A DNA stretch of 64,000 nt. Origin: Alphaproteobacteria bacterium. Lineage in GTDB: Bacteria > Pseudomonadota > Alphaproteobacteria > JAGOMX01. Shown here one piece after another: positions 1,497 through 48,724 of the stretch. Numbering within the stretch: the first letter of the stretch is position 1; each line of letters opens with the position of its first letter. Both the position numbers and the translations under genes were made by a program. Location: NCBI GenBank assembly GCA_017993335.1, contig JAGOMX010000001.1:4863-68862 (forward strand), in the 5' to 3' direction. The notes beneath the pieces are model-generated. The model had not been told where the DNA came from and searched no databases. It was given only the letters and a program-made list of their open reading frames with translations.

Positions 1497-1952
1497 CCTG
1501 ACTTCTGCCATTTAGTGTAATAAATAATTCAGCCACAAAAACCGAAGAAGAAATTCAGAACGTAAGGAATGTTTTGTTCTTTCGTTTGTATTCGGGGGGC
1601 TATACCCTAAACCCGAATCTAAATCCATTAAGGGGAAAAAGCTATGGGAACAGGTTTTTGGACGTTACCTTGTGACTGGTTTCTGTGATATAGGGGTAGC
1701 CTGAATTTCCGCTGCTCGGGTGCGCCAGAAAACCCTGGTTTAGAAACAATTTTTCTAACTGCCACTCTGGTGAAACGATCTACAGTCACGAAGAAGCAAA
1801 CAAAGAGTGAGTGCGTGATCGTCTGATTAATAATAAATTAAGTGAAAAACAAGTGAAGAAATACTTGACTTATCGAAATAATATAAATATATAGTAAATT
1901 GAGTCCACACTACAGTGGCTTATTGTTATTTATTCATATTGGAGTATTAGTT

Positions 1953-2789
1953 ATGAACATTAAAAAGTTTACTGCAAAATCCCTAACCTTATGTGCTTCC
2001 TTATTATTAGCAGGAAACATATCTTCCTCAGTCGCAAGTGATTCTATTGATGAGGTAAACAGAATACCTCCTAGTGTTGCCTTTATGAAGCAACAAGCCC
2101 TAGCAAAGCAAGAAGTCCTTCTAACAAAGATCCATTCGTGGGGTGAAAGTGCAGACCCTGCATCTTGCTTGCTCGATTTTCAAGAACAACTCAAAGAATT
2201 AGTAAATATTCATACAAAGCTTGGGCCAATGCTAAATGAAATACAGATGGAGGCTTTTGTAGATGAAATTAATTCAATCAAACCTTGGAATGGATTTGAG
2301 GGTACATTTGATTTCGATAAACTAGACAGAAACATTAAAGCTATGATTGTTAGCTGGATGGACCCAAAAACTCTACTAAGCTTTTCTCTCACATGTAGAC
2401 AAGCATACGAACAGTTTGAAAAAGCAGCTATTCCTTCGCAAATATTTGCTGTAAGAGCTGTTGACGAGAAATTCAACTCTTTAATCCACCAGTTAATCAC
2501 TGTTGGTAAAACATTGTCAACCAGGGGTATGTTTACATATAATATGTCAAATGGCGCCGCCCCTAACTCCAGCTCACTCATATTAAATACATCCTACAAT
2601 ATGGCTACATTTGAGCTATTTCTTGAAAAAGAGGTACTTAATATGAAAGAAAGAAAGAAAGCATATCTGATGGCCATCGAACTATATCCTCAAATTAGAA
2701 TAGCATTAAATCTCATAAAAGAGAGTGGCTCCAGAGAATCTTCTTATTGGAATTCATATTTTAACTGTTTAGGTACGTCTAACACCTAA
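1953..2789 (+). CDS. hypothetical secreted protein (N-terminal signal peptide)
   Basis: ATG at 1953 preceded by GGAG at 1941. N-terminus MNIKKFTAKSLTLCASLLLAGNISSSVASD is signal-peptide-like. No recognisable domain. The ORF-track start at 1899 is probably too far upstream. Confidence 0.55.
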   Translation: MNIKKFTAKSLTLCASLLLAGNISSSVASDSIDEVNRIPPSVAFMKQQALAKQEVLLTKIHSWGESADPASCLLDFQEQLKELVNIHTKLGPMLNEIQMEAFVDEINSIKPWNGFEGTFDFDKLDRNIKAMIVSWMDPKTLLSFSLTCRQAYEQFEKAAIPSQIFAVRAVDEKFNSLIHQLITVGKTLSTRGMFTYNMSNGAAPNSSSLILNTSYNMATFELFLEKEVLNMKERKKAYLMAIELYPQIRIALNLIKESGSRESSYWNSYFNCLGTSNT

Positions 2790-11271: not shown

Positions 11272-11931
11272 TCATAAAAAATATGACTTCAAGATTACTG
11301 CAGCTAAAACTAGCGCCGTTGCATTACGATAAGTTGGTTTTCCCAGCATTCTTGTAATTAATAGTTGCGGCCCATACAGTATTAAAGCTATGACGTTTTC
11401 CCCCATGGGTAGACCCATAAAAATTTCACCTATTGATTTTCGTGTTATTTGGAAACCATAGTTTTGTTCAAGTTTTTCGAATGCAGTTATCATTTGCTTG
11501 TCCATGTTTCCATGCCTGTAGTAGAGGGAACAGAGACAATTGAGAGAGTCTAATGGTCCATATGCTCTCAAAGTATCTTCTGATACGTCATTGGAAAGAG
11601 CGGGTCTTACATAGGAGGCATATAAAATTACATTTCGGTACATATCCTCAGACCAGGGGAACCAGATATCTTCTGACAGGCAAAAGCAGGTAGGCATACG
11701 GTCCACAAAAAGTTTAGACGCTTGTTCCAGATTTTCCGGGTTTAATTTGGTAATGTACTGGGTATCCAAAGTCGCAAGTTTATTATTTAAATCAATAAAT
11801 GACGTTTGTGTATTTTCAGTAACAAATGCTTGTAATGTAGAGTTAGCTCCCTCTATGTCAGAAGCAATTGTCTGCGGACAAAAACTCCACACGAATAAAA
11901 AAACAAGTGCTTTCGTCAGAATATTTTTCAT
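11272..11931 (-). CDS. hypothetical secreted protein
   Basis: Probable start MKNILTKALVFLFVWSFCPQTIAS (signal peptide). No recognisable domain. Confidence 0.45.
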   Translation of the reverse strand: MKNILTKALVFLFVWSFCPQTIASDIEGANSTLQAFVTENTQTSFIDLNNKLATLDTQYITKLNPENLEQASKLFVDRMPTCFCLSEDIWFPWSEDMYRNVILYASYVRPALSNDVSEDTLRAYGPLDSLNCLCSLYYRHGNMDKQMITAFEKLEQNYGFQITRKSIGEIFMGLPMGENVIALILYGPQLLITRMLGKPTYRNATALVLAAVILKSYFL

Positions 11932-12427
11932 AATAATCCCCATAGTTATTGTGAGTTTTCCTATCATTACCAACCTTTATGACTCGACGCAAGTCGATAA
12001 TCTTATCAATAGGCTATTACACAATCTTAGGTTTCTAAAAAGGCTCTATTAACATGATTTCTTTGATAAGTTTCTCGTGGCGTATAAGCTGGAATTACCA
12101 TGGACTCTATGCTTTTAAATGTCTCTTTGGCCCAATCTAGGTCATCATCGTTATCAATAGCCACTGTAACGGTACATATGCTTCCTGGTGTTACTACATG
12201 GCAAACAAGTATTAATTAACCACCTTCTGATTCTGGCGCTCTTATCAAAGTTGCTTTACCTGCACATGCCCCCTTATCAAAAGCGAACACACCTATTACT
12301 TTGAATGAAAAGTCATAATAATTGCGGCCAACATTTTTTCTTGAAAGGTGGGTATCAAATGGGCTACAAATGGCAGACCCTTTGGGTAGACATGTATTTT
12401 ATTCTTTCAATCTTATTGGACTGTCAT

Positions 12428-13618
12428 ATGAAAAAACTTTTCCAAATATTCCTCTCTTTTGTCTTGTTCTTCAGCAGTTCTTTTGCTATTTCCTCCGATG
12501 GATCTGGGCTGCGGAATAGAAAAGCGCCTGTTGTGTATAATTTTATATCGGACGCTACACAACCTTTGTTGGAAGAAAGAGCTCCCCTGGTAACTTATGT
12601 GCAAGAACAGCCGGTGGAGTCAGGGTCGGATACTTTTGAAGGAATTCTCGAGGGTGTGCTTAATCCCATGCAACCAGCCAAGCCATTACATCCCTGCAGT
12701 GTATCGTTTTTAACGGCCAAGCAATCTGCAGAACAGTTTGATGCGGCTGATAAAGGGGACATAAAAGTCCAAAAAGAGATTATTCATAGAGATAATTTGA
12801 TGCTACAATCATGGCCACAGCAAGCTGTTGAAAAATCCATGCATTGGGAGGCCTTAAAAGAAGCCGGGACTGATCCGGCAATAGCTCGCTTTGTGTTCAG
12901 AAAATATAAAAGTCTACCTTGGTTGGATGACCAAAAGATTCAAAATATTTGCCAAATGATTGAGTTGAAAGCCAAAGGCCGAGATCCTCAAGCCTTGTTA
13001 ACTTATAGCAACTTAATTAGCAAGGGGATCTATTTCTCACGCAATGCCCATCTTTCTTTAAAGTGTGTTTTAGAGGCTGGGGTTTTAGGCGAAGCTATGG
13101 GGTACTATTATGCTTTTGAAACCTTAAATATAGCAGGGAAGACTCAAGCGGCTGTCCGATGCGTTCTGATGGCTGCGGAGGCTGGACTTGCTATTGCCCA
13201 GTATGCTGTTTTTATAGCGCATGCGAAGGCATGTGGAAAAATTAAAGACAAACCTAATCTTGTGGAGATAATTGAGCCAACAAAGGAATGGAGCAACTTT
13301 TTAATTGGGAATAGAACCATACGTTTGCATCCTGAGTATGGCTTCATCGGGAAAGAAAATACGGGTATTGTAATGGAGTATCTAGAAAAATCTGCGAATC
13401 AAGGGTTCGTTTTGGCTTTGATGGGACTTGGAGGTTATCAACTCTCGAAGTTTAAACGCCTTCGTCAACAAAAATCCTTGATGACGGCTATGAACGCTTT
13501 TACGAAAGCGGCTGAACTGGGATCTGCCGAGGCTGTGGATTACATTAAAGATATCGAGCTGAACTTTTCCGATAGGAACGAGCCTGTTCAAAAGAGTGTG
13601 ACAAAAGCAATCGAATGA
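12428..13618 (+). CDS. hypothetical secreted protein with Sel1-like helical repeats
   Basis: Signal-peptide start MKKLFQIFLSFVLFFSSSFAISS. C-terminal AAELGSAEA and AAEAGLAIAQY are Sel1/TPR-like segments. Confidence 0.5.
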   Translation: MKKLFQIFLSFVLFFSSSFAISSDGSGLRNRKAPVVYNFISDATQPLLEERAPLVTYVQEQPVESGSDTFEGILEGVLNPMQPAKPLHPCSVSFLTAKQSAEQFDAADKGDIKVQKEIIHRDNLMLQSWPQQAVEKSMHWEALKEAGTDPAIARFVFRKYKSLPWLDDQKIQNICQMIELKAKGRDPQALLTYSNLISKGIYFSRNAHLSLKCVLEAGVLGEAMGYYYAFETLNIAGKTQAAVRCVLMAAEAGLAIAQYAVFIAHAKACGKIKDKPNLVEIIEPTKEWSNFLIGNRTIRLHPEYGFIGKENTGIVMEYLEKSANQGFVLALMGLGGYQLSKFKRLRQQKSLMTAMNAFTKAAELGSAEAVDYIKDIELNFSDRNEPVQKSVTKAIE

Positions 13619-16604: not shown

Positions 16605-17420
16605 ATGGGGCGTTATGATAACTTTTATCCGGAATATGTACCTGTGGCTGAAAAGAAGAAGCAAGCCGAGAAAAAGATTGCTGCTTTGCGAAAAAAAGGA
16701 ATGGATATTCAACCGGTGGTTATTGAAGGCCAGGCAATCGCGAAAACCTATTGGGGCAAAGCATGGTGCAAGCATTTGGAAACCTACAAGGATTATGCTT
16801 ATCGTTTGGACCGTGGTCGCTCCTATGTGCGACATGGTGCGGTGATCGATTTAAAACTTGAACCTTGTGCCATTCATGCGCAAGTCAATGGTTCATCGCT
16901 TTATAAGGTCAAGATCAAGATAGATCCCGTTCAATCTGCCCGTTGGCAGAGCATTCTGGATTCTTGTTCTGGCAAGATTGGCTCACTTATTGAGTTGTTG
17001 CAAGGTAAGTTTTCTGCGAATGTTATGGAAATTATGACCAATGCAGAGACAGGATTGTTTCCAGGCCAAAAAGAAATCAAATTCGAATGCGACTGTCCAG
17101 ATTATGCGCTCATGTGTAAGCATGTGGCTGCCGTGCTATACGGCATTGGCGCACGTATTGATAACAATCCAGAGGATCTGTTTTCCCTGCGTAAAGCTGA
17201 TTACGCAGATCTTGTTGCCAAGGCAGGAGCAATGACCGCAATTCAACATGAGCTAGATCCCGGCCTTGCGGATGGTGACATTTCTGCCCTCTTCGGCATC
17301 GAAATGGATGCACCCGTGCCTAAAACGAAAGTGGCTGCTAAACCCAAGTTGGTTGCAAAAGCCAAAAAGGCAGTTAAGACAAAAGCGAAGACTGTGAAAA
17401 AGACAGCAAAGAAAGGGTAA
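16605..17420 (+). CDS. SWIM zinc-finger protein with C-terminal Lys/Ala-rich histone-H1-like tail
   Basis: CDCPDYALMCKHVAAVLYG is a CxCx(n)CxH SWIM signature. The last ~45 aa are KTKVAAKPKLVAKAKKAVKTKAKTVKKTAKKG. Starts 20 nt after the SNF2 stop with an AAGGAAAG RBS. Confidence 0.85.
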   Translation: MGRYDNFYPEYVPVAEKKKQAEKKIAALRKKGMDIQPVVIEGQAIAKTYWGKAWCKHLETYKDYAYRLDRGRSYVRHGAVIDLKLEPCAIHAQVNGSSLYKVKIKIDPVQSARWQSILDSCSGKIGSLIELLQGKFSANVMEIMTNAETGLFPGQKEIKFECDCPDYALMCKHVAAVLYGIGARIDNNPEDLFSLRKADYADLVAKAGAMTAIQHELDPGLADGDISALFGIEMDAPVPKTKVAAKPKLVAKAKKAVKTKAKTVKKTAKKG

Positions 17421-23237: not shown

Positions 23238-23457
23238 ATTTATAATCTCACCCTACAATTTATCTTTGGTCTTTATACCAATTCTAATGAAAAAGGCAAG
23301 TGTTCTATGATCTTATGTAAAATGAGGACAAAGCAAAAAAGTATAAAGCAGATCATTAAGAGAAACATCAATGCTTTATTTTTATTGCAATTTGCCACCA
23401 TGAAGTATAAAAATAAGGGACTTTTTTTCTCTACCGCACAAGAGTTTATAAAACCTA

Positions 23458-24849
23458 ATGCAAAATATATTATTTGTAGATTTAGATGAATCTTTAGTGA
23501 GAACAGATGTTTTTCATGAGCAATTTTTTCGCTATTTACTTTTATCCCCAATTAAGGCATTGCGATTAATTTTTCGCTCTAAATTATCCCCTGAAACGAT
23601 TAAATCATCTTTGAGTGATCTCGTCGATACGGATGCAACTACATTACCTTATAATAAGGAGGTGATGAAACAAATTGAGCAAGCAAAGGATGCCGGCTAC
23701 AAAATTGTTCTGGCAACGGCGGCTCATGAGAAAATAGCGGGTAAGGTTGCTCAATACTTAGGTGTTTTTGATGACGTTATCGCAACCACCGATACTTATA
23801 ATTGCAAAGGATTAAACAAACTTAAAAAAATGCAAGAGTATGCTCAAGGTAATCCTTTTGAGTATATCGGTGATAGCCAGGCAGATATCGCTATATTTAA
23901 TCAGGCCAAAAAGAGCTATGTTGTTGGCAGTTTGAACTATGATAATGCGGTGAGAATAAAAGGGCGCCCGCCTATACCAAAATCAATTTTAAAAGCTATG
24001 CGTCCGCACCAGTGGGCTAAGAACAGCTTGATTTTTCTGCCTTTGCTTACGAGTCATACGTTCAATGCCTCTGAAGTTTTGATTAGTTTATTCGGCTTTG
24101 TCTGTTTTTCTTTGGCGGCGTCGGCTGTGTATATTATAAATGACATGCTCGATATAGAAGATGATCGGCGACATTTGTCGAAGAGAAACAGGCCTTTTGC
24201 AAAGGGGATGTTGTCAATAAAACAAGGGATCTTCATAAGCGGGATATTATTTTTAGCAACTTTATTCCTATCGTATATATTGTTGTACCATGGCATAGTG
24301 GTCTTGTGTGTGTATATTGCTCTTACTTTTTTCTACTCTTCATATCTCAAATCTCAACCTATGATGGATGTTTTTTGTTTAAGCCTTTTGTATTCCATCC
24401 GTGTTTTTTATGGCCATGTGATTAATGGCATTGATCAATCCTCTTGGCTGCTGGCTTTTTGTTCTTTCTTCTTTTTAAGCTTGGCATTTATGAAGAGGTC
24501 TGCAGAAATAGAAAAAGTTGCGACGAAAGCAGAAAGCCTAGCGCAGAGGCGTGGATATGGGCAGAAAGATGAGTTTTTGCTTAAAACGGCGGGTATTTGC
24601 TCCGGTCTTATATCTATTTTGGTGCTATGTTTGTATATAAGCTCTGAAAAAGTATCTATACTCTATGCAAATCCTGATTTTCTTTGGGCTGCAGCTTATG
24701 TTTTATTGTTTTGGAAATTAAGGATGTGGCTTATTACAACGAGAGGAAAAATGGATCAAGATCCTGTTTTATATACGTTAAAGGACCCTGTTTCTTACGT
24801 TGTGGCGGGTTTAGTTATTATTTTTGGCCTTTTTGCAAAGGTTTTTTAA
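23458..24849 (+). CDS. fusion protein: HAD-superfamily phosphatase domain plus UbiA-family polyprenyl-phosphate phosphoribosyl/prenyl transferase domain
   Basis: N-terminal VDLDESLVRTD (HAD motif I), later GDSQAD (motif IV-like). C-terminal half has 8-9 TM with NDMLDIEDD (NDxxDxxxD UbiA motif). Confidence 0.75.
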   Translation: MQNILFVDLDESLVRTDVFHEQFFRYLLLSPIKALRLIFRSKLSPETIKSSLSDLVDTDATTLPYNKEVMKQIEQAKDAGYKIVLATAAHEKIAGKVAQYLGVFDDVIATTDTYNCKGLNKLKKMQEYAQGNPFEYIGDSQADIAIFNQAKKSYVVGSLNYDNAVRIKGRPPIPKSILKAMRPHQWAKNSLIFLPLLTSHTFNASEVLISLFGFVCFSLAASAVYIINDMLDIEDDRRHLSKRNRPFAKGMLSIKQGIFISGILFLATLFLSYILLYHGIVVLCVYIALTFFYSSYLKSQPMMDVFCLSLLYSIRVFYGHVINGIDQSSWLLAFCSFFFLSLAFMKRSAEIEKVATKAESLAQRRGYGQKDEFLLKTAGICSGLISILVLCLYISSEKVSILYANPDFLWAAAYVLLFWKLRMWLITTRGKMDQDPVLYTLKDPVSYVVAGLVIIFGLFAKVF

Positions 24850-26678
24850 TGAGATCTAATTATTTAAAATTAGTTTTCCTTGTAGGAATTTATTTATTAC
24901 ATGGAAAACCATTCGTTGGTGTGTCTAGCTATATTTATATTTTATTGCTGATAACCCTTGTCTTGTTTGGAAGCCAAAGGAAAAAAATCCAGCCACTTTT
25001 GATTGGGGCGGGTGCGTTCTTTTTTGCATGCACGTTTGTAATTCCACAACTTGCCATCCCAGAGCAATATCGATTGCTCGTGGATCAAAATAAGGTGATA
25101 ACCTCCCCCGATTGTTTTATGGAAAACGAAGAATTATATCCTTATTTTCCCAGTGCGGATGGGTATTTACAAGGACAGACAGATAAAAGATTTGTTTCCT
25201 CCATAGATATCGATGGCTCAGTTTTATCCTTACGTAGCGGATGGGTTAATCGGCAGGAATATAATTTTTATGGCGAAGACAATACGGTTATTCGAGCAGA
25301 AATGCCATATGTTGTAACATACGAAATTATTCCTGATATGGTTGGAATGGAGCTTTTCTATAGCGGGCAAGTGTATCTAGAAAAAGAAAATATTTTTCTT
25401 CCCTTGGATAAGGGGTCGCTAATTATAGAATCTCACCATGTGGGGAGTAAAATAACTGGCTTTTCTACAAAGCAAAATATGGATATTTTGAGTTTATGTT
25501 TGAAAAAAACACTTGATTACAGAATCTACGATATCCTTGATGTGGTGAGTTTGTATTTAGGGCTTCTGGGGTTGTTTTTCGGTCTTTTTTCGATACATCT
25601 TACAAAAGCAGTAACTTTTCAGATTTCTAGCCTTGGGGTTTTTACTTTTCTTCTTTTGCTTGAGCACATGGATGTATTTCAAAAAGGTATCCTGGTTGGC
25701 GGTGGATCTGATGGAATTGTGCACGGTGGATTCCCCTACTGGATGTTAGAAAAATGGATTGATGGGGATTGGCTTTCGGCTTTGATTTCGCCGGAAAAGA
25801 TTTTTTATTTCATGCCAGGTATGCGTTATGTCCGTTTTGTAGAAATGCTTTTATTTGGGGATGCATATATTTTACAAGTAGGCCTTTTATGTTTTATGCC
25901 GATAATTTTATACCGTTTTTTTTCTGTTTTCCTGAGTCAGAATGCAGCTATGATGCTTTCGGCTATAGCCTTTGTTCTTCCTCGAAACGCTATGGGTTTC
26001 AGTTATAGCTTTTACACAAAATATGTATACTCTCTATATGGTGAAGCCTTTGCGTATGGATTGTTCTTTATAAGCCTTACCCTACTTGCAAAAAGAATAC
26101 GTTCAATGGGCTGGGGATTTTTAGCCTTTTTCTTGGCGGCTGTATGCCTTTCTATCCGTCCAAATTTAGCCGTATTTTTTGCCGTGATTGCATGTGCACA
26201 TCTTTTTTCCGAGACGTTTACAGATTTGAAGTGGACGTCTAGATTTTGGATGCTATTTGGTTTTGTTCCTGTGTTTTTAATACCTTTGCATAACATTTAC
26301 GGTGGGGAGTTTGTCCTTTTAACCTCAGCGTCAAATATACCTGAAAACTTACCCCTAACACCCATGTCTTATTGGAACACAATACTTTACCTATTGGGAG
26401 ATGAAAATAACATCGAATCGGCAAGCAAGGTATTAAAGCATTTAAAAAGTTATCACCCCCATTATGTTTTTGCGTGGTTGTTTATGTTATGGGTGAGTAT
26501 AAAAGGCCGAGATGCGATTCTGCGCGTATACTCTTTTGCCGTTTTTTTAGGCTTAGGACTGCACTTTTTCTTTAAACCCAGTATGAGATATATCGCGCCA
26601 TATCTTGTCATTTTTATAATTTTTGGCCTCCATCAAATTTTTTCAAAAAAAATATTAAAAAAAGTGAAAGGCGCATGA
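24849..26678 (+). CDS. large polytopic membrane protein, possible GT-C-type glycosyltransferase
   Basis: ATG overlaps the upstream stop (TAATG), so translationally coupled. ~14 predicted TM segments with a ~180-aa extracytoplasmic loop. No firm family assignment from sequence alone. Confidence 0.55.
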   Translation: MRSNYLKLVFLVGIYLLHGKPFVGVSSYIYILLLITLVLFGSQRKKIQPLLIGAGAFFFACTFVIPQLAIPEQYRLLVDQNKVITSPDCFMENEELYPYFPSADGYLQGQTDKRFVSSIDIDGSVLSLRSGWVNRQEYNFYGEDNTVIRAEMPYVVTYEIIPDMVGMELFYSGQVYLEKENIFLPLDKGSLIIESHHVGSKITGFSTKQNMDILSLCLKKTLDYRIYDILDVVSLYLGLLGLFFGLFSIHLTKAVTFQISSLGVFTFLLLLEHMDVFQKGILVGGGSDGIVHGGFPYWMLEKWIDGDWLSALISPEKIFYFMPGMRYVRFVEMLLFGDAYILQVGLLCFMPIILYRFFSVFLSQNAAMMLSAIAFVLPRNAMGFSYSFYTKYVYSLYGEAFAYGLFFISLTLLAKRIRSMGWGFLAFFLAAVCLSIRPNLAVFFAVIACAHLFSETFTDLKWTSRFWMLFGFVPVFLIPLHNIYGGEFVLLTSASNIPENLPLTPMSYWNTILYLLGDENNIESASKVLKHLKSYHPHYVFAWLFMLWVSIKGRDAILRVYSFAVFLGLGLHFFFKPSMRYIAPYLVIFIIFGLHQIFSKKILKKVKGA

Positions 26679-26679
26679 C

Positions 26680-27171
26680 ATGTTAAGTCTTCTCGATAAA
26701 TTGAAAATAAAATTCCGCCATATCATTTCCCCTCATAACGAATTGGTTGATTTAGCTGAAAACTTTCAATCTGTTTGCGATATTGGGTGTGGGTTGGGAG
26801 TTTTTTTATCGGCTCTTTCCGGAAAAGGAAAAATTCTTCACGGGGTTGAGATATCTCAATCTCTTGTAGAAAAAGCGAATAAACACATGCAAATGAATAA
26901 AATTTTGGATGTGACTGTCTCTCATTTCAACGGTAGCCCTTTAACGATTCCTTCCTTAAAAGAAAGTGATGTTTGTTTTTTAAATGACGTCTTGCATCAT
27001 GTTCCTGAACAATTACAAAAAATTTTTTTAAATGAAATTTATAATCAAATGAAGTCCGGAAGTAAATTTATCCTTAAGGATATTGATGCGGCCAGTAAAC
27101 TTGTATATTTTAATAAAATTCATGATCTTGTGTTAAGTCAGGAATACCCGCATGAAATGCCTTTGAATTAG
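26680..27171 (+). CDS. small class I SAM-dependent methyltransferase
   Basis: VCDIGCGLGVF glycine-rich SAM-binding motif I and acidic motif II (CFLNDVLHH). Start 1 nt after the upstream stop. Confidence 0.7.
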   Translation: MLSLLDKLKIKFRHIISPHNELVDLAENFQSVCDIGCGLGVFLSALSGKGKILHGVEISQSLVEKANKHMQMNKILDVTVSHFNGSPLTIPSLKESDVCFLNDVLHHVPEQLQKIFLNEIYNQMKSGSKFILKDIDAASKLVYFNKIHDLVLSQEYPHEMPLN

Positions 27172-27275
27172 TGCATAGATGTTTGTAAAAATATTGGTTT
27201 TCGCGTAGACCAGGTTTTTTCTATAAGAAAATTATTTTACCCTCATTTTATTATCGTGATGACAAAACTTTAGTG

Positions 27276-31861: not shown

Positions 31862-33163
31862 ATGCAGCATAAATTAACTTTATCTTTTATTGGTTTTGCC
31901 TTAATCCCGCTTTTAATTGTTTTGCAATGGGCGGTTACGTATATAGGCAGGGATCAAAACCAAAATCTGTCTCAAGATACAATTCAGCTGGTTGAGAAAC
32001 AAATTTTTCTACAAACTCAGGAACGGGTTCGGGATTTAGAATCTATCTCGCTATCTGAAGTTTTTTGGGAAAGCAAAAAGAATGATTTGGATTCGATGCG
32101 CTTGGATTTCAAGAAATATAGCGACGCCTTAATGTTCACACACCCAGACTATCGTTTGATCATGCTCGTTAACGAAAAAGGTCGTGTTTTAACGATTAAT
32201 AGTAAGGATAGCAAGGGGAATCCGCTGGACACAAATACACTGCTTGGCAAAAGTTTTGATCGCTCCAGCTGGTTCCAAAAAGCCTTGTCGACGAAGGGTG
32301 TTTTTATTGAGTCTCCTCGGGAATTAGAATACATAAATAGTCTATATGCACCGGCAAAATCCAAGTATTTACCTGTTGTTAAGTCCATACGCAATGAAAT
32401 GGATGAGGTAAAAGGCGTTTGGGTTATCTTCGTTGAAGCTTCATTTTTAACGGATATCCTTAATGTCGCAGCTTTGCACATCGAAACGCCTTACAAATTA
32501 GGCGTTTATGATGGGTTAGGTAATCCTTTAGCCGAAATAGATACATTCAAAAAAGAGCCCCTTGAAAATATAGATGTACAAAAAAACGATTTTAATTTCT
32601 TAGGACAAAACTGGACGGTACAAGCCTATATCCAGGAAACGCCTTTGGTGGATTATCTGTCTTTATATCTATGGCCGGCAGTAGCCGCCTTTGGCCTTAT
32701 ACTGTTATATGCATTTGTAGCGGCCAGACGTTTTGTTATTCCGCTTCAGCGCCTGGTTTGTGCAGCCGAATTGATTCTAAAAGGCAACTTTAGTTTTGGT
32801 GTTCCTTATGCAGAGAGAACAGACGAATATGGTCGTTTATCGAGAGCTCTCTCGGATCTACAAAAATTGCGCTTATGGAAAAAGAATGAAAAAGAAAAGC
32901 CTTTAAATACATCCACGGCAGTTCAGGAAACAGCACAAAAATTGGAAGATACAACGCAACTGATTCATAGCTTGTCGGCCCAAGCCAATATGTTGGCTTT
33001 GAATGCCTCTATGGAAGCCGTTAAATCTCATCATTTAGATGAAGTGGCAGAAAAAGCCAATGATCTTGCACAAAAAACTTCTTATAGCAGTCAAGAGCTA
33101 TTGAAAAAATTAAATGAAATAAAGGTCGTTTGTGATGAAATTCAAAACCAGGAAAAGTCATAA
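31862..33163 (+). CDS. MCP-like membrane sensor with HAMP and truncated methyl-accepting signalling domain
   Basis: Two TM segments flanking a ~230-aa periplasmic region and a HAMP-like linker. C-terminal QANMLALNASMEAVKS resembles the MCP signalling-domain core, but the domain is only ~90 aa. Confidence 0.6.
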   Translation: MQHKLTLSFIGFALIPLLIVLQWAVTYIGRDQNQNLSQDTIQLVEKQIFLQTQERVRDLESISLSEVFWESKKNDLDSMRLDFKKYSDALMFTHPDYRLIMLVNEKGRVLTINSKDSKGNPLDTNTLLGKSFDRSSWFQKALSTKGVFIESPRELEYINSLYAPAKSKYLPVVKSIRNEMDEVKGVWVIFVEASFLTDILNVAALHIETPYKLGVYDGLGNPLAEIDTFKKEPLENIDVQKNDFNFLGQNWTVQAYIQETPLVDYLSLYLWPAVAAFGLILLYAFVAARRFVIPLQRLVCAAELILKGNFSFGVPYAERTDEYGRLSRALSDLQKLRLWKKNEKEKPLNTSTAVQETAQKLEDTTQLIHSLSAQANMLALNASMEAVKSHHLDEVAEKANDLAQKTSYSSQELLKKLNEIKVVCDEIQNQEKS

Positions 33164-36619: not shown

Positions 36620-39600
36620 TTATTTTTCCATCATATTTATAATGGCGTCCCAATTTTCTGGGATGCCTTCGCTGATGAGTTTCTGGCATCTGGTTACGAA
36701 AATATTGGCAACAGGATCTTCTTTACGAATGGCTATGCAGGCTTCAAAGATTTTTTTGGCCTTTGCAATGTCGCCTTTTGTATAAAGTGTAAGGGCTTTC
36801 TCAAAGGAATCAATGTAAGCATCATTCGTTTGTTTTTCCTCATAGGAAGTGGAGGGAAGAACTTCATAGATTGTCATCGCTTTCGTTTTACCTTTAACGC
36901 GTATTTTATCTATTTTTCGAATACTAAATCGGGATGCATCCATAAGTTTATCGTAAGTGGCATCGCTGATTAATAGTTGTGTACCATACATTTTGTTTAA
37001 TCCCTCAATACGGGAAGCGCCATTGACCATATCGCTGACGACGTTGGCTTCGATGCGTTCTTCTTCTCCCAGGGCACAAAGCATGGCTGGTCCTGTATTA
37101 ACGCCAACACCCATCAGGATGCTTGCAAATCCTGCATCGTTAATTTCTTGGTTAAATAAGGGTATAGCTTGTAGCATTTCTACCGCTGCTTGTACGGCAT
37201 CTTGGGATGGGCCGGGGAATAGGGCAAGAATACCATCGCCCAGAACACGATTAATAAATCCATTGTTTTGCCGAATGATAGGAGCCATGTATTTGAGGTA
37301 AGTATTGAGTATGTATGTTAGTTGCTCTGGCTCGATAGCTTCAGATATGGATGTAAAGTCTCGTAGATCTGCAAAAATCGCCGACATTTCAGATTTTGCG
37401 CTATCCCCTATTTGGACTTCTTCAATATTTTTTCTCCCTAAAAGCTGTAAGAACTTTTTCGGAACGAATCTCTCGGTAGCATGAAACAATTGTTGAGTAT
37501 GTTCTAGATAGCGTGCATTTTCCAGTGAAATGGCTATTTGAGTGGAAAGAGTCGAGAGAATTTGGACCCTGTCTGGAGTAAAGGCTTGTGTGGTTAGATT
37601 ATTCTCCAGGTATAAAATAGCCGTAACTTTTTTGTCGCGCAATATAGGAATGCATAGAGCGGATTTAGGTTTGTTTTTTTGTACGTACTCTAGTTTTGCA
37701 TATTTTTCATCGGCACTGATGTCTGAGATAACTTCGGGGCTGCCGGATCTTATGGTGTAGGTTATTAAACCTTCCGGCACAGAGGTGCTTTTTTGAAGAG
37801 GTTCGATAATCTGGCGTACATCGAATGTATCTTTATTCATTTCGGCAATTGTTTCTACCGTCCATACATCACGGCGAAGTCCAATAAAAATAGCTTTTTC
37901 GGCGCCTGCAGACTCGGTAACGACTTTTAATATTTTTGGCAGCAGCTTATCCAGTATGATTTCGCTGGAGATGGCCTGGTTGGCTTTTATCAACGACATT
38001 AAGTCTAATTCGCCCGTCATCATGGTGGTAGAAAAACCGACTGGTGTTCGAGGGGTATTCGAAAGTTTTTGTTTCTGCAGTAAAGTATGGCCATATTTTT
38101 CTTGAAGACGCTTAACTTTTAAATTGCATCCCCACTGTTCAAAAAAATAGATGGCTTCAGAGATGTAGTAGATGGCGGCCCCATGGTACCCCATTTCTAA
38201 ATTCATCTCGCCTAATCTTTCATTCGCTATCGCCGTCCATCGGGTATAAGCATTTTTCTGAGAGACCTGAATAGCGTTGTTATATAAATCAAAAGCTTCC
38301 AGAGTCTTTTTTTGAATACGCGCAAGTTCTGCTTGTCCAAGAAGATAAAGATGTAAAAAATTATCTGGATTGTGATCGGAGAATTTTTTCAGCAGAGAAA
38401 GATATTTATTAATTTCCTTTATAGACTCTGTTTTCTCCTCATCGGAGGCGCTTGGATACAATTGAGCCAAGATCATGATGGATAGCGCGTAATAAATTTG
38501 ATTGCCGATGGATGGATTGTTATAGGTCCTGCTCTGCATGGCCTGTTGAGCGGCATGTTTTGCGAGTTTAAATTCTTCCTCAAAATAATAATTAAATACG
38601 GAAAATAGCCCAAAATCATTTTGTGTCGCCGGAAGAGATTTGCTGACATCGTCTAATGAAAGAGTTTTTTCATCCAGCATGTGTTGTGCACAAATATAAA
38701 CATGCTGAGCCGCATCTATAATATTTTGCATGCGCAAACGATTGCCGATTCGGACATATTCGTTCGCCTTGTTTTTTAGATCTGCCAGTGGGAGATCGGA
38801 AAAGTTACAAAACTCTAAATTTGCATTTATAGACCAGGGAAGATAAGTAAAAGAACCTGTTTCGACCATAGTCTGAATACTTGGCTCAATATCTTGAATC
38901 ATATCCTTTATTTTAGAAAAATAAGCCGCTGTTCGCGTCGATCGGGAGGTGAAAAGAGCTTTTATGGATGCGGGAAAATGCCTGGTTTTTAAGACAGACA
39001 TGCCTCCTTGCCATATGGTCTCGTAACTTTTTAAACTTCCTGTCACCTGGTATTGAATGCGAGCTCTTGAATCTATTAATTGATAGAGAATGTTATCATC
39101 GACGCCATTCTTTTCAAAATAGACCGCGACTCGCATGGTTGCACAATTGGGGAATGTGATGTTACCTCTAAATATGGAGGCAGAGGCCCCTAAAAACAAG
39201 ATGTCCGCCAATACGGCTGTTCGTTCTATATCTGCAGGTTCATTGGTAATTCGCTTAAAAGAAAGAATTTTATTGACGAATGTGCTACCACTTTTGTATC
39301 TCAGGAAGTATTTCATAAACTCATAATAAAATTCTAACATGGATGGATTAAGGGAGATGTCGATGCCAATGATTTTTGTGCCCTTAACTTCCATGCTGAC
39401 AGTTTCTTGGTAATTGCCTAAAGCATTATTGATTTTCATTAAGGATCGATAAACATAGGCGCCTTGTAGGCCCCGTAGTTTTTTTTCTAACAATTTTTGC
39501 CCTTGAGTACGGGCATCTTGATAATCACCTTGTAGATATAAGCACTCTACATATTCTAAATTTAAATGAAAATGTAGTTTGTGGTTTTTATCCCAATCCA

Positions 39601-41896
39601 TATGAAGGAGCCAAAGCAAGCCAAGGGAAAGATAATCTTTCGCGGCTTGATAGGCGTTAGAACCGATAGCTTGCCGACCGGCACGCAAGGCTAACTCCGC
39701 CAGTTTTATTTTTTCTTCCTCATTATCAATAAGACCTTTGCATCGGTTAAAATGATCGAGGACTTCAAAGACATCTTCGCTGGAGCTAATTTCATCTATT
39801 TTGCTGAGTAGGAGTCTTCCGGCTTTTAAGTGGAGATACGTTTTTTCATTATCTGAAATTGTTTGATACGTCGCTTGTTGGATACGGTCGTGAATGAATT
39901 TATGTCTTAATCCTCCATCTATACGTTGGATGAGGCCTTCTTTTATGGCGGGAGATAGCTTATTAATTAAGTCTATCTCTTCAATTTTTTCTATATTACA
40001 TAAGGTCTCGCAATCGAAAGACATGCCCAAGCATGAACCTAGTTGTAAAGTTTTTTGGCTTTCGCTGGGGAGTTTATTTATTTTTTCCAACATCAGGTCG
40101 ATGACGTTGTTGGATCCGGCCATGAGTTGTATTTTTTCAAGATCCCACTCCCATGCTTTATTTTGCAGAGAAAACTTTATGTAATTCTGATGAAAGCATT
40201 CTTTCAGAAACTCTCTTGTAAAAAATGGGTTTCCGTCGGTTTTTTTATAGAGGACTTTTGCGAGGGGTTGGATTAATTTGGCATCGGCTTTAAAGGTATC
40301 TGTCAACAATCTTTCAGTATCTTTAAGGCCTAAAGCACCTAATTCGATATTTTCAATGTCCATCCCAGATTTTTTTAATTTCTCTAATAGCTTTATTAGA
40401 GGGTGGCTTTCATCCACTTCATTATTACGAAAAGCACCGATAAATAAAATGGCTTCTGCATCTTGTGTGCTTAAGATAATATCCAACAAGCGTAAGGAGC
40501 CCTGATCTATCCACTGCAAGTCGTCGATAAAAATGACTAAGGGTTCATCCCGATTGGCGATACAGCTTATAAACTTTTGAAAGAAAAATAAAAATCTATT
40601 TTGTGCTTGTTCTGGGGATAGTTTTTCTATTTCAGGTTGCTTGCCCAAGACCAGTTCAATTTCAGGAAAAAAATCAATCATGACTTGGCCAGAAGAGCCT
40701 AAGGCTAACAAAAGCCTATTCTTTCTCTCCTCAAGCCTTTCTTCTGATTCGGTCAGCCAGTTTTGAATTAATTTGGAAAAAGCAGTTGTAAACGCTGTAT
40801 AAGGCGTTGTGCGGAGTAATTGGTCAAATTTCCCACTAATATAATAACCATTTTCTTGAGTTATGGGTTTTTGTAATTCATTCACTAAGGTTGTTTTACC
40901 TATACCCGAGTACCCGCCTATCATGACACATTCTAGGTTGCCGTCTTTAACTCTATCAAAAGCGGACATGAGTTGTTTGACTTCATTCTCCCTGCCATAC
41001 ATTTCGGAGGAAATTGTTAGCTTGTTGAGTAATTCCCTGGAACCTAAATTAAAATCTTCAATTTTGTGATTATTTAGCCAGCCTTGATGACACAATTCTA
41101 AGTCATACAATAACCCTTCTGCACTTTGATATCGATCGTCTGCGGATTTAGCCATTAATTTGGCGACTATTTTTGATAACATCTGTGGTACCAAATTATA
41201 GGCTTTAGAAGCTGATTTTGGTTCTATCGCTAAATGAAAATGGACGTATTCAAGGGGGTCGTTACTGGTAAAGGGTAGGGACCCAGTTAGCATCTCATAA
41301 AATGTTATTCCTAGAGAATAATAATCGCTACGATAATCAATAGGCCGATTCATTCTCCCTGTTTGTTCAGGAGACATATAAGGCAAACTTCCTTCTAATT
41401 TTTGCACAGAAACAACTTCTTGATTTTCAACGGTTAGTTGGCTGGCAAGGCTTAAATCCAGGAGTTGAATGCCTAACGTGTTCGGGTGGATGAGCAAATT
41501 ATCAGGTTTGATGTCTTTATGAATAATGTTGTGAGCATGCAGCTGCGATAAACAATTTATTATATTCTTGGCAATCGTTAAAAAGAGATCTGGGGTCAGG
41601 GGTTTGCCGGATAAATATTTTTTTAAAGATATGCCGCCGGTATCCTCATAAATGAGGAAGTGTGAATCGGCTTCTTCTATTAATTTTTCGCAATGGACAA
41701 GGCCGGAAAATTTAATTTCATGATTGATTTGATATTCATGGCGAAAAGCTGTAAGCAAGGCCTGCGAAGGGCGTTTGGATTTAATCGCCTTTATAATGAC
41801 GTTTCCATAATCTACAGGACCATGAGCCTTGAAAACAACGATATCATTGTTCTCATAAAGAATCCCATTGTTTTTATAGCTTGCTAAACGGTCCAT
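36620..41896 (-). CDS. giant multidomain signalling protein: Ser/Thr kinase - AAA/STAND NTPase - TPR-like array - GAF - class III adenylate/guanylate cyclase
   Basis: 1758 aa. N-terminal Hanks kinase (VIIKAIK, HNIIHKDIKPDNLLI, SPE). Walker A GGYSGIGKTT near aa 325. Long helical repeat region. GAF-like region near aa 1250-1400. C-terminal cyclase with FADLRDFTSISE and a terminal TPR. Confidence 0.85.
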   Translation of the reverse strand: MDRLASYKNNGILYENNDIVVFKAHGPVDYGNVIIKAIKSKRPSQALLTAFRHEYQINHEIKFSGLVHCEKLIEEADSHFLIYEDTGGISLKKYLSGKPLTPDLFLTIAKNIINCLSQLHAHNIIHKDIKPDNLLIHPNTLGIQLLDLSLASQLTVENQEVVSVQKLEGSLPYMSPEQTGRMNRPIDYRSDYYSLGITFYEMLTGSLPFTSNDPLEYVHFHLAIEPKSASKAYNLVPQMLSKIVAKLMAKSADDRYQSAEGLLYDLELCHQGWLNNHKIEDFNLGSRELLNKLTISSEMYGRENEVKQLMSAFDRVKDGNLECVMIGGYSGIGKTTLVNELQKPITQENGYYISGKFDQLLRTTPYTAFTTAFSKLIQNWLTESEERLEERKNRLLLALGSSGQVMIDFFPEIELVLGKQPEIEKLSPEQAQNRFLFFFQKFISCIANRDEPLVIFIDDLQWIDQGSLRLLDIILSTQDAEAILFIGAFRNNEVDESHPLIKLLEKLKKSGMDIENIELGALGLKDTERLLTDTFKADAKLIQPLAKVLYKKTDGNPFFTREFLKECFHQNYIKFSLQNKAWEWDLEKIQLMAGSNNVIDLMLEKINKLPSESQKTLQLGSCLGMSFDCETLCNIEKIEEIDLINKLSPAIKEGLIQRIDGGLRHKFIHDRIQQATYQTISDNEKTYLHLKAGRLLLSKIDEISSSEDVFEVLDHFNRCKGLIDNEEEKIKLAELALRAGRQAIGSNAYQAAKDYLSLGLLWLLHMDWDKNHKLHFHLNLEYVECLYLQGDYQDARTQGQKLLEKKLRGLQGAYVYRSLMKINNALGNYQETVSMEVKGTKIIGIDISLNPSMLEFYYEFMKYFLRYKSGSTFVNKILSFKRITNEPADIERTAVLADILFLGASASIFRGNITFPNCATMRVAVYFEKNGVDDNILYQLIDSRARIQYQVTGSLKSYETIWQGGMSVLKTRHFPASIKALFTSRSTRTAAYFSKIKDMIQDIEPSIQTMVETGSFTYLPWSINANLEFCNFSDLPLADLKNKANEYVRIGNRLRMQNIIDAAQHVYICAQHMLDEKTLSLDDVSKSLPATQNDFGLFSVFNYYFEEEFKLAKHAAQQAMQSRTYNNPSIGNQIYYALSIMILAQLYPSASDEEKTESIKEINKYLSLLKKFSDHNPDNFLHLYLLGQAELARIQKKTLEAFDLYNNAIQVSQKNAYTRWTAIANERLGEMNLEMGYHGAAIYYISEAIYFFEQWGCNLKVKRLQEKYGHTLLQKQKLSNTPRTPVGFSTTMMTGELDLMSLIKANQAISSEIILDKLLPKILKVVTESAGAEKAIFIGLRRDVWTVETIAEMNKDTFDVRQIIEPLQKSTSVPEGLITYTIRSGSPEVISDISADEKYAKLEYVQKNKPKSALCIPILRDKKVTAILYLENNLTTQAFTPDRVQILSTLSTQIAISLENARYLEHTQQLFHATERFVPKKFLQLLGRKNIEEVQIGDSAKSEMSAIFADLRDFTSISEAIEPEQLTYILNTYLKYMAPIIRQNNGFINRVLGDGILALFPGPSQDAVQAAVEMLQAIPLFNQEINDAGFASILMGVGVNTGPAMLCALGEEERIEANVVSDMVNGASRIEGLNKMYGTQLLISDATYDKLMDASRFSIRKIDKIRVKGKTKAMTIYEVLPSTSYEEKQTNDAYIDSFEKALTLYTKGDIAKAKKIFEACIAIRKEDPVANIFVTRCQKLISEGIPENWDAIINMMEK

Positions 41897-46716: not shown

Positions 46717-47079
46717 ATGACTTATGACGATACCAATATATTTGCAAAAATGATCCGAGGGCAAATTCCTTGCGACGCGGTCTATGAAAATGAATTTGTT
46801 TTAGCCTTTCGGGATATTGAGCCAAAAGCAAAGGTTCATATACTTGTTGTCCCGAAAAATGCGTATGTATCTATTGATGATTTTGGGGATCGAGCCACCC
46901 CCCAGGAGGCGCATGCATTTTTACAAGCGATCTCTCATATTGCCAGAGCCCAAGATTTAGAGGAGATGGGGTATCGGATCATCATGAATCACAAAACCTA
47001 TGCCGGACAGCAAGTGTTCCATTTTCATGCGCATATCTTGGGCGGCGAGCCACTAGGGCCTATGATAAGTCTGGGCTAG
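46717..47079 (+). CDS. HIT-family (histidine triad) hydrolase
   Basis: AGGAG RBS then ATG at 46717. HFHAHIL histidine triad motif. 120 aa. Confidence 0.8.
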   Translation: MTYDDTNIFAKMIRGQIPCDAVYENEFVLAFRDIEPKAKVHILVVPKNAYVSIDDFGDRATPQEAHAFLQAISHIARAQDLEEMGYRIIMNHKTYAGQQVFHFHAHILGGEPLGPMISLG

Positions 47080-48724
47080 GTGGGGTGTATTGATCAATCC
47101 AAGTCATCAATTCATCAAAAGGCATGCCGGCGGACATCAGATACCCTTGACCCAGATCGCATCCCATTTTTTTAAGGATATTCAACTGGTTTTGGGTTTC
47201 GATACCCTCGGCGACTACCGTCAAATTTAATTGATGGGCGAGGGAGACCGCGCTTTTGACAATGGCTTGTGCTGCGGAATTGATACCGAGTTCATTAACA
47301 AAAATACGGTCAATTTTTAGCCCGTCAATGGGGAGTTGAAATAAGTACTGTTGACTGGCTTGGCCCGTTCCAAAGTCGTCAATGGATATGCGAAGACCTA
47401 AAGACCTTAAATAGTTAAGTGTCTCGATCACTTCCTCCATATTGGTAGAAAAGGCTGTTTCTGTCACTTCTATTTCAATGCCTTGAGGATTTAAGGCATA
47501 TTTTTCGATGAGTTCAGAAATCTTTGAAATAATCGTATAATCATGGAAATTACGAAGAGAAAAGTTTACCGCTAAGTTTAATTCGATCCCTCGAGATTCC
47601 CAACGGGCCATATCTTTAAAAGTTTGCTCAAGCATCCATTTGGTAAATGGATTGATGAGCATCGTTCTTTCTGTCAAGGGGATGAATTGTGCCGGAGAGA
47701 TGTCTCCTCGCTCCGGATGCCTCCAACGGGCGAGGGCTTCGACCCCGTGAATTTTTCCGGTCTTCAGTTCAATCTTGGGTTGGTAGTGAATATGCAATTG
47801 CCCCTGATGAATCGCTTCATTGAGTTGGGTGAGCATAATCACGTTATCTGCGGACGGATCAATCACTGATGGATCGTAGTATGCAATTGTTTTGGCCTGT
47901 TTAGATGCATAATTTATGGCCATGCGTGCTTTACGAAATAAACCTGAAAAAGTTGAATCATTTAAAGGATAACGAGAAACACCATAAAAATCTTCTATGA
48001 AAATTGGGATGTCATCGACCATATAGGTGGACCGAAGACATTCTTTGCACGTGGTGATGATTTCATCCGCCAAACGAATATCTTCGATGAGAAGAGAAAA
48101 AACAGAAGTTTGCGTATGGCCAATCGTGACGTTTTTAGGAAGACCATTAATCAAATCGTCTTTGATGAAAACTAATAGCTTATCGATACCTGCTGGACCA
48201 ATGGCGATTTCAATTTCATTGAGATTTTTTAAATCCAGTAAAACAATGGCAATGCTTTTTGCGCTTTTCTTTTTATTCTCAAACTCAACCTCAAGACCTA
48301 AAAAGTTTGGCAAATGCGTGACTGGATTATGTAAGTACTTTTCTTTAATCTCCCTTAAATAGGCCCTGAAAACAGTCGAACCTAATCCAGAAATTATACC
48401 AATGAGTATGAAAAAAATGGTGCGGACAATCCAGGAATGTGTGGGTTGCATGGTGTGATCCGAAATAATCAGCGGCATGTAAGGCCCGACTAAAAAACCA
48501 GACATTATCGCAATAAAGGTCCCGCCTTTCAGGGCGAAAAATACACCGGAAAGAACGATGGGAACATAAAATAAATGCAGGTAAGAAAAAGATGTCCCAC
48601 CGGTATAGATGACGATATATAAGGAAATCGTCAGTAAAAAGGTAATTAAGGAGAAGAGAATTAGCTTTTCCAGTTTTCCCGGGTAAAGCCATTTTTCAAA
48701 TAGGTAAATAAGGTTTTGTTGCAT
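47060..48724 (-). CDS. membrane-anchored c-di-GMP phosphodiesterase (N-terminal TM sensor, degenerate GGDEF-like region, EAL domain)
   Basis: 5-6 N-terminal TM helices. EAL signature QPKIEL...GVEALARW and DDFGTG motifs. Confidence 0.8.
   Translation of the reverse strand: MQQNLIYLFEKWLYPGKLEKLILFSLITFLLTISLYIVIYTGGTSFSYLHLFYVPIVLSGVFFALKGGTFIAIMSGFLVGPYMPLIISDHTMQPTHSWIVRTIFFILIGIISGLGSTVFRAYLREIKEKYLHNPVTHLPNFLGLEVEFENKKKSAKSIAIVLLDLKNLNEIEIAIGPAGIDKLLVFIKDDLINGLPKNVTIGHTQTSVFSLLIEDIRLADEIITTCKECLRSTYMVDDIPIFIEDFYGVSRYPLNDSTFSGLFRKARMAINYASKQAKTIAYYDPSVIDPSADNVIMLTQLNEAIHQGQLHIHYQPKIELKTGKIHGVEALARWRHPERGDISPAQFIPLTERTMLINPFTKWMLEQTFKDMARWESRGIELNLAVNFSLRNFHDYTIISKISELIEKYALNPQGIEIEVTETAFSTNMEEVIETLNYLRSLGLRISIDDFGTGQASQQYLFQLPIDGLKIDRIFVNELGINSAAQAIVKSAVSLAHQLNLTVVAEGIETQNQLNILKKMGCDLGQGYLMSAGMPFDELMTWIDQYTPPSPDLS

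Follow-up and report, generated by a model that had tools for sequence, protein, structure and literature searches.

Bacterial systems that add pentofuranose sugars outside the cytoplasm have been described as having three components, namely a PPPRS enzyme, a flippase and a GT-C glycosyltransferase (the founding member of family GT136), together with optional epimerases that lead to xylofuranose or arabinofuranose (PMC11127046). In Citrobacter youngae O1 the first component is ORF15, in which an N-terminal HAD 'PRP' domain is joined to a C-terminal UbiA 'PPPRS' domain (Kelly et al., PNAS 2024, PMC11127046). In vitro ORF15 converts phosphoribosyl pyrophosphate (PRPP) and farnesyl phosphate to farnesyl-phosphate-ribofuranose; mutation of the HAD nucleophile leads to a build-up of the 5-phosphate intermediate, and the residues of the NDxxDxxxD motif are essential (PMC11127046). 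The C. youngae GT136 protein (ORF12) is built on 11 transmembrane (TM) helices, with a small α-helical domain in the periplasm following TM1 and a β-rich carbohydrate-binding module at its C-terminus (PMC11127046). The subject here is an operon of three genes, g1, g2 and g3, in a 64,000-nucleotide stretch of an uncultured alphaproteobacterium (GenBank assembly GCA_017993335.1, contig JAGOMX010000001.1, positions 4,863 to 68,862 of the forward strand; this whole stretch is referred to as the window). The operon probably encodes a compact variant of such an extracytoplasmic pentofuranose-addition system. The fusion architecture of g1 and its pathway logic have been known since 2024, and g1 alone is of a recently characterised type; the useful part is its partner g2, a candidate for a new family of GT-C pentofuranosyltransferases. 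The features discussed below are as follows.

23238-23457, no strand: intergenic region between divergent accB and g1, presumed operon promoter region, from gene orientation alone.
23458-24849, plus strand: g1, polyprenyl-phosphate phosphoribofuranose synthase (HAD and UbiA fusion), 463 residues from an ATG, assigned from NF006088, Pfam, the Rv3806c match and motifs.
24849-26678, plus strand: g2, probable GT-C-type pentofuranosyltransferase of an undescribed family, 609 residues, assigned from an AlphaFold (AF2) model, Foldseek, topology, synteny and fusions.
26680-27171, plus strand: g3, class I S-adenosylmethionine (SAM)-dependent methyltransferase, N-terminal 163 codons, assigned from Pfam and alignment to the L001 homologue, ending at TAG 27169-27171.
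27172-27273, plus strand: C-terminal rest of g3 past the TAG, 33 conserved codons, from codon alignment to L001, ending at the ancestral stop.

The operon spans 23458-27171 of the plus strand, and in the map of open reading frames (ORFs) its three genes are tightly packed. The TAA stop of g1 and the ATG of g2 overlap in TAATG (24847-24851), and the ATG of g3 (26680) lies one base after the TGA stop of g2, so that the coupled layout given in a preliminary description of this DNA is confirmed. A mechanical ORF list opens g2 at an upstream TTG (24684); the ATG at 24849 is preferred because the resulting 609-residue protein is 100% identical to a database protein, P0001, from an Alphaproteobacteria bacterium metagenome-assembled genome (MAG); an exact look-up of g2 in a contig index gave no match. 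The g1-g2(-g3) order and its tight spacing recur in at least eight independent metagenomic or MAG loci, and the arrangement is therefore not due to chance. In a profile scan with a g2 alignment (A1; five genomes matched) the nearest named relatives of g2 were MAGs of Candidatus Finniella, a member of the Paracaedibacteraceae in the order Holosporales whose members are obligate symbionts of protists. The host is accordingly described as a Holosporales-like, Finniella-like uncultured alphaproteobacterium, related to bacteria that live in amoebae.

Against the NCBIfam model NF006088 g1 scores 502.3 bits (cutoff 351), with residues 4-461 aligned to profile positions 13-480 of 482. The models ranked next are three for decaprenyl-phosphate phosphoribosyltransferases, at 123-144 bits, and every other UbiA model in NCBIfam, including those for quinone, haem and ether-lipid synthesis, reaches 55 bits at most. 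The best match among PDB sequences is Rv3806c of Mycobacterium tuberculosis (8j8j, E 2.6e-26), to which the NDxxDxxxD and KRxxE regions of g1 align; the next protein, digeranylgeranylglyceryl phosphate (DGGGP) synthase, follows at E 1.5e-4. Pfam finds HAD at residues 38-146 and UbiA at residues 200-422, and the domain limits are drawn at about 1-165 for the N-terminal HAD phosphoribose phosphatase and about 175-463 for the C-terminal UbiA 5-phosphoribosyltransferase. Both HAD motif I (DLDES, 8-12) and motif IV (GDSQAD, 138-143) are intact, and the UbiA motifs read NDMLDIEDD (228-236) and KRSAE (346-350). The HAD-UbiA fusion and the motifs quoted in the preliminary description are thus borne out. 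So is the kinship it proposed with polyprenyl-phosphate 5-phosphoribosyltransferases, since by profile scores and PDB ranking the UbiA domain appears to group with these enzymes and not with the prenyltransferases of quinone, haem or ether-lipid synthesis.

By analogy with ORF15 the product of g1 is most likely polyprenyl-phosphate-ribofuranose, made from PRPP, and the adjacency of a PRPP synthetase gene (prsA) in the relatives L005, L026 and L011 gives indirect support. The likeness to the C. youngae system extends to domain architecture, the DxD nucleophile, the NDxxDxxxD motif and the R..E pair, and to the general logic in which donor synthesis is followed by a periplasmic GT-C enzyme; phosphoribosyl transfer followed by dephosphorylation, as the preliminary description had it, is the sequence of events in ORF15 (PMC11127046). 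The two systems differ in that no MATE or SMR flippase adjoins the genes described here and in that a SAM-dependent methyltransferase is attached, as a gene in this operon and as a fusion in some homologues. They differ also in setting: the C. youngae genes form part of an O-antigen cluster, whereas this operon stands alone among housekeeping genes in a Holosporales-like host.

The second described system with which the locus may be compared is the mycobacterial decaprenyl-phosphoryl-arabinose (DPA) pathway. Rv3806c is the closest solved relative of the UbiA domain, one related locus (L005) uses a PAP2 phosphatase as does Rv3807c, and EmbB is the best fold match of a g2-family member, P0030. 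In contrast to that pathway, the phosphatase here is a fused HAD domain and not a PAP2 enzyme, neither DprE1 nor DprE2 was found in the window, and profile searches of PDB sequences brought up no similarity between g2 and the Emb or Aft proteins. Undecaprenyl phosphate is presumably the carrier here, against decaprenyl phosphate in mycobacteria.

At the level of sequence g2 belongs to an unannotated family of membrane proteins with an architecture of its own, which is new here. The protein gave no Pfam match at E values up to 0.1 and no NCBIfam match, and the core of 40 diverse family members gave no Pfam match at E up to 0.01. Profile hidden Markov models (HMMs) of the family matched nothing among PDB sequences, Emb and Aft proteins included, and a tblastn search with g2 against 72,556 plasmids returned nothing. 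The family is nonetheless sizeable. A word-indexed search recovered 32 relatives, every one of them unnamed or 'hypothetical', and the g2 HMM matched 749 of 1.84 billion cluster representatives at E <= 1e-3 (265 at E <= 1e-30), most of them full-length proteins of 600-700 residues; the approximately 750 clusters are clusters at 50% identity. Five of the 40 diverse members weakly match NF047440 ('LA_3751/LA_3752 family putative glycosyltransferase') at 19-20 bits against a cutoff of 200, in each case within the conserved region corresponding to TM8-11, which can be taken as a hint only. No description of the g2 family was found in the literature on GT136, PPPRS and LA_3751.

The AF2 model of g2 (pLDDT 83.7, pTM 0.85) predicts a large polytopic protein. 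AlphaFold helices, hydropathy and charge distribution agree on 14 TM helices, the number given in the preliminary description, and place the N- and C-termini in the cytoplasm; the loops GSQRKKIQ and KRIRS and the C-terminal tail KKILKKVKGA lie on the cytoplasmic side. A PA14-like β-sandwich domain of 155 residues (approximately 65-221) is inserted after TM3 and is predicted to be periplasmic. A polytopic protein with 7-13 or more TM helices and an extracytoplasmic domain near the start of the chain is what membership of the GT-C superfamily would lead one to expect. The invariant or near-invariant polar residues of the family (E72, D104, R114, D288, E316, R326, Y327, R437-P438-N439, H481-N482 and R580) are all located on predicted periplasmic loops or helix ends, and among them E72 and D104, which are at least 90% conserved, and the invariant D288 are candidates for the catalytic acidic residue that GT-C enzymes conserve in the first large extracytoplasmic loop. 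By its description g2 is set apart from ORF12, having 14 TM helices in place of 11, a β-sandwich after TM3 in place of a small helical domain after TM1, and no C-terminal domain.

Fold comparison gives a statistically weak pointer to GT-C enzymes. When the g2 model was compared by Foldseek with 350,542 PDB chains, the best GT-C matches were STT3A and AglB (probability 1.00), followed by yeast STT3 (0.97-0.98) and ArnT (0.82), with no E value below 1e-3; the membrane proteins in the top 50 were all GT-C enzymes (STT3A, AglB, yeast STT3, ArnT, PglB, PIG-M and DPY19). A second model, of P0030 (27% identical to g2, pLDDT 73.8), matched EmbB (E 3.7e-3, probability 1.00), ArnT (0.99) and ALG3 (0.96), and a single membrane protein outside the GT-C class at probability 0.28. 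All three fold searches matched the β-domain of the family to carbohydrate-binding domains of the PA14 type. A search of BFVD with g2 gave weak PA14 matches and uncharacterised archaeal-virus membrane proteins only.

Gene context and natural fusions constitute stronger evidence than fold for regarding g2 as a GT-C enzyme. In L001, L020 and L022, whose g2 homologues are 44-50% identical to g2, the order is tkt-g1-g2-g3 followed by a convergent GNAT gene, and L021 has the same order up to the point where the locus is cut; L023 and the contig of P0011 share this layout except that g3 is missing. In L001 (4311-6362) a transketolase gene immediately precedes g1 in the same orientation, with equivalents in L008, L020 and L023. 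In a second clade (34-38% identity), which also takes in L011, the prsA gene of L005 and L026 is followed by a separate UbiA gene lacking the HAD domain and then by g2; L005 adds a PAP2 phosphatase, the Rv3807c-type solution, and none was detected in L026. At 25-30% identity, a g2-like gene in L014 is followed by a HAD-UbiA gene. In L012 (4476-7850) the functions are combined in a natural g2::HAD::UbiA fusion, a single ORF of 1124 residues, which links g2 to the synthase and fixes the C-terminus of g2 on the cytoplasmic side. Other family members (P0056, P0087 and P0171) carry C-terminal methyltransferase domains, and still others carry GDSL domains; the joining of cytoplasmic domains to the C-terminus in such fusions is in keeping with the cytoplasmic position predicted for that end of g2. 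In all, relatives of g2 adjoin HAD-UbiA, or prsA and UbiA, in at least nine loci.

More distant members keep company with other donor-loading enzymes. L003 combines GT2 and WecB genes with a g2-like gene. In L015 two g2-like genes stand in tandem within an extensive polysaccharide locus that also contains Wzx and a GT2 gene, and the g2-like gene of L016 is surrounded by Wzy_C and GT1 genes. In L003 and L015 the GT2 enzymes come closest to polyprenyl-phosphate-sugar synthases (PgfS, ArnC, PpgS and dolichyl-phosphate hexose transferase), in every case scoring under the cutoff. Members of the g2 family thus recur beside enzymes that charge polyprenyl phosphate with sugar, the defining partnership of GT-C transferases. 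Systems of the ArnT/GtrC type share the same three-step logic, ArnT was matched in both Foldseek searches of PDB chains, and the distant g2 relatives pair with GT2 enzymes similar to those of such systems (ArnC/PgfS/PpgS-like); they differ in that the donor here is derived from PRPP by a UbiA enzyme, where those systems use a GT2 enzyme and a nucleotide sugar, and in that g2 has no sequence similarity to GT83.

In L014 (5331-13307) the g2-like and HAD-UbiA genes are immediately preceded by genes for a T2SSE/T2SSF ATPase and platform and by three small ORFs lacking Pfam matches. By analogy this locus may serve to glycosylate a pilus or pilin, for arabinofuranose O-glycosylation of type IV pilin has been proposed in Pseudomonas aeruginosa (PMC11127046).

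The operon is thus probably best understood as a short pathway of the following form. The UbiA domain of g1 would make lipid-linked 5-phosphoribose from PRPP, from which the HAD domain would remove the 5-phosphate to leave polyprenyl-phosphate-β-D-ribofuranose. This lipid-linked sugar would then cross to the periplasmic face with the help of a flippase encoded elsewhere, or possibly of g2. On that face g2, a probable GT-C-type pentofuranosyltransferase by its fold, topology, context and fusions, would add the pentofuranose to an envelope acceptor, for example a component of lipopolysaccharide or lipid A, another glycan or a protein, and its PA14-like domain would probably bind the acceptor. 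Because no epimerase has been found, the transferred sugar is most likely ribofuranose. More tentatively, g2 may found a new family of GT-C-type glycosyltransferases that have an inserted PA14-like lectin domain, use polyprenyl-phosphate-ribofuranose as donor (other polyprenyl-phosphate sugars in distant members) and work without a dedicated flippase, and that in many lineages are fused to the donor synthase or to a cytoplasmic methyltransferase as a channelled synthase-transferase machine, possibly with a methylated lipid-linked donor, serving envelope decoration in protist-associated Holosporales-like bacteria; as a whole this wider proposal is possible but falls short of probable.

What is new in the locus, in comparison with the described systems, is the partner family, the fact that no flippase gene was found, the recurrent association and fusion with a methyltransferase, and the occurrence of an isolated module in Holosporales-like symbionts. 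Two or three genes removed from any polysaccharide cluster offer a minimal test system for heterologous work. The HAD-UbiA and methyltransferase fusions fix the orientation of the protein in the membrane and suggest that donor synthesis and transfer are coupled, and the missing flippase raises the question of how such donors cross the membrane. The system points to a ribofuranose decoration on the envelope of Finniella-like protist symbionts, one that is being lost in several lineages.

The third gene fits this pathway less securely. Pfam assigns g3 to Methyltransf_31/11/25/23/12, and its SAM motif reads DIGCGLG. An in-frame TAG interrupts it at codon 164 of 197, where the L001 homologue (197 residues) has Glu; a one-base change from GAG to TAG at 27169-27171 would account for the difference. 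Beyond the TAG, 33 conserved sense codons continue to 27273 and align codon for codon with the homologue, reading RKLFYPHFIIVMTKL and a stop here against RKLVYPHFIMVMTKI and a stop in L001, and tblastn covers residues 1-197 of g3 in L001, L020 and L022. Reassignment of the stop codon was considered and rejected, as TAG ends 10 of the 38 long ORFs in the window. Judged from the alignment, the TAG would be either a recent nonsense mutation or an error in MAG assembly. The gene is lacking in about half of the loci of close relatives and is for this reason regarded as accessory. SAM is cytoplasmic, and where a methyltransferase is fused to a g2 homologue it is attached to the C-terminus, on the cytoplasmic side, which makes methylation after periplasmic transfer unlikely; if g3 belongs to the pathway, it would act before export, and an intact g3 might, speculatively, methylate the lipid-linked donor or an acceptor precursor in the cytoplasm. 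The possible methylation that the preliminary description coupled with transfer of the sugar to a surface glycan or lipid is for these reasons not supported.

Several observations weigh against the pathway as proposed. The fold evidence for g2, which comes from predicted models, is statistically weak, and there is no sequence-level tie between g2 and any curated GT-C family in Pfam (PMT/PMT_2, Arabinose_trans, STT3, GT87 and others) or in the PDB; the GT-C-like character first ascribed to g2 is supported by gene context and natural fusions, less so by fold, and finds no counterpart in sequence. A flippase (MATE, SMR, EamA or GtrA) was found neither in the operon, nor in the loci of close relatives, nor among the 40 window ORFs that were scanned with Pfam, and none came from tblastn with rhizobial SDR (short-chain dehydrogenase/reductase) epimerases, GMC oxidoreductase, SMR and (Vibrio) EamA transporters, transketolase and PrsA as queries; the pathway is in this respect not 'self-contained', as it had been called. 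No other glycan genes flank the operon, the window covers 64 kb, so that an epimerase may be encoded elsewhere in the genome, and g3 in this genome is, from its reading frame, probably inactive. One close relative (L007/L019) has g2 without an adjacent g1, and in L011 (5882-8530) numerous stops and changes of frame mark the g2 homologue as a pseudogene, which comes directly after an intact prsA gene, a UbiA gene being absent from between the two. The module can therefore be dispensed with, and it may be undergoing decay in these reduced genomes.

The absence of a flippase bears on an alternative in which g2 is itself an exporter or flippase for polyprenyl-phosphate-ribose, or another protein that handles carrier lipid, and the true transferase is encoded elsewhere. 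The characterised systems need a flippase of the MATE, SMR or GtrA type (PMC11127046), and the statistical weakness of the GT-C fold matches leaves room for such a role. Yet the fold matches include no transporter, the confident membrane matches all being GT-C enzymes, and the invariant charged and polar residues on the periplasmic face together with a PA14-like, lectin-type domain fit a glycan-binding enzyme better than a flippase. Distant g2-family members, moreover, occur in loci that already possess a Wzx-type flippase (L015). The alternative is unlikely, and a transferase role for g2 is preferred.

A further alternative concerns the identity of the sugar. Unlinked epimerases, DprE1/DprE2-like or of the SDR type, might convert the donor so that the final sugar is arabinofuranose or xylofuranose, as in mycobacteria, in Pseudomonas pilin glycosylation and in C. 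youngae O2. Known systems diversify their donors with auxiliary epimerases, and the GT136 transferase takes more than one pentofuranose (PMC11127046); rhizobial HAD-UbiA loci contain two SDR epimerases and a GMC oxidoreductase, and the window, as noted, is a part of the genome. Where epimerases are used, however, they are normally encoded in the same cluster, and none stands beside g1-g2 in about ten related loci. Within the 64-kb window no epimerase (DprE1/E2-like, FAD_binding_4/ALO, SDR epimerase or GMC) was found by Pfam in the 40 ORFs or by tblastn with the rhizobial epimerases, in agreement with the statement in the preliminary description that the operon has none. A sugar other than ribofuranose is thus quite unlikely.

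The rhizobial and roseobacterial plasmid loci of Sinorhizobium fredii NGR234 (pNGR234a), Rhizobium sp. CCGE531 and Jannaschia sp. CCS1 encode a full-length g1 homologue (35-37% identity) and, after it, a large hypothetical membrane protein; they differ from the present operon in their SDR epimerases, GMC oxidoreductase and SMR transporter, and their membrane partners have 658 and 526 residues. The possibility that g2 is a divergent copy of the rhizobial, Vibrio or Jannaschia partners was rejected, since the rhizobial 658-residue protein gave an hhalign probability of 0.25% and was not significant in hmmsearch; by the same two methods the partners in the NGR234, Vibrio and Jannaschia loci show no relationship to g2, and they are unrelated to one another as well. 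Rhizobium sp. CCGE531 is listed as a candidate system in Fig. S12 of PMC11127046, and the 658-residue protein belongs to that system. Judged by these sequence comparisons, the transferases that partner PPPRS enzymes evidently come from several families without kinship to one another, of which g2 represents a further one. The layout in NGR234 (L006, 9426-16003) and CCGE531 (L031, 10425-16907) comprises an SDR oxidoreductase, the 658-residue membrane protein (which has no Pfam match), a GMC oxidoreductase, a small hypothetical protein, an SMR transporter and a second SDR epimerase, and looks like a more elaborate pentofuranose system. Full-length HAD-UbiA homologues were present in 102 plasmid records, mostly from Rhizobium, Sinorhizobium, Azospirillum and roseobacters, which, like the listing of Rhizobium sp. 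CCGE531, contradicts the earlier view that such a pathway is not a standard feature of alphaproteobacterial envelopes. A phage collection yielded one unannotated UbiA-only match and no more.

The signs of gene loss described above raise the further possibility that the operon is a decaying remnant, with no envelope modification left, in a reduced genome of endosymbiont type. The in-frame stop in g3, the L011 pseudogene with no UbiA gene beside it, and the close relatives that lack g3 or an adjacent g1 would all fit, as would the kinship of the host to Candidatus Finniella, given the obligate symbiosis of that group. Against this, g1 and g2 are intact full-length ORFs that keep every residue invariant in 24 to 40 homologues and all catalytic motifs, their translational coupling is preserved, and an error of sequencing or assembly could explain the one TAG. 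Decay of the whole operon is very unlikely on these grounds, and a functional g1-g2 pathway is favoured. Effectively refuted is the reading of the UbiA domain as a conventional quinone, haem O or ether-lipid prenyltransferase in a cluster unrelated to sugars, which has in its favour that the NCBI family is named only 'UbiA family prenyltransferase', and against it the profile scores and PDB ranking given above, the PRPP synthetase genes adjoining in relatives and the HAD fusion, which makes sense only for a phosphorylated product (PMC11127046).

The flanks of the operon consist of housekeeping genes, with divergent accB/accC (minus strand) on one side and convergent mgtE and a malic enzyme gene (minus strand) on the other. 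The two-domain GNAT acetyltransferase that converges downstream in Finniella-like relatives, like the transketolase, has no counterpart near the operon, and no homologue of either was found anywhere in the window. Promoter-like sites were no commoner than in shuffled sequence, Rfam gave no match, and a terminator scan returned 7 sites against 3.4 ± 2.1, none of them located after g3. GC content is 0.364 in the operon and 0.322 in g3 alone against 0.412 in the window, and the GC content at third codon positions (GC3) of the operon is near that of neighbouring genes; the difference is a weak signal and gives no clear evidence of recent horizontal transfer.

Elsewhere in the window, ORFs at 1899-2789 (plus), 11272-11973 (minus), 12305-13618 (plus), 16605-17420 (plus), 61404-62261 (plus) and 62290-63186 (plus) had no Pfam match at E <= 1e-5 or 1e-6. 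By far the largest ORF in the window encodes 1758 residues at 36620-41896 on the minus strand. A protein resembling dCache domain proteins and methyl-accepting chemotaxis proteins (MCPs), with domain scores below Pfam cutoffs, is encoded at 31862-33163 (plus), and a GGDEF-EAL protein at 47060-48724 (minus); these are sensory-signalling genes, and the relatives of the host are intracellular symbionts.

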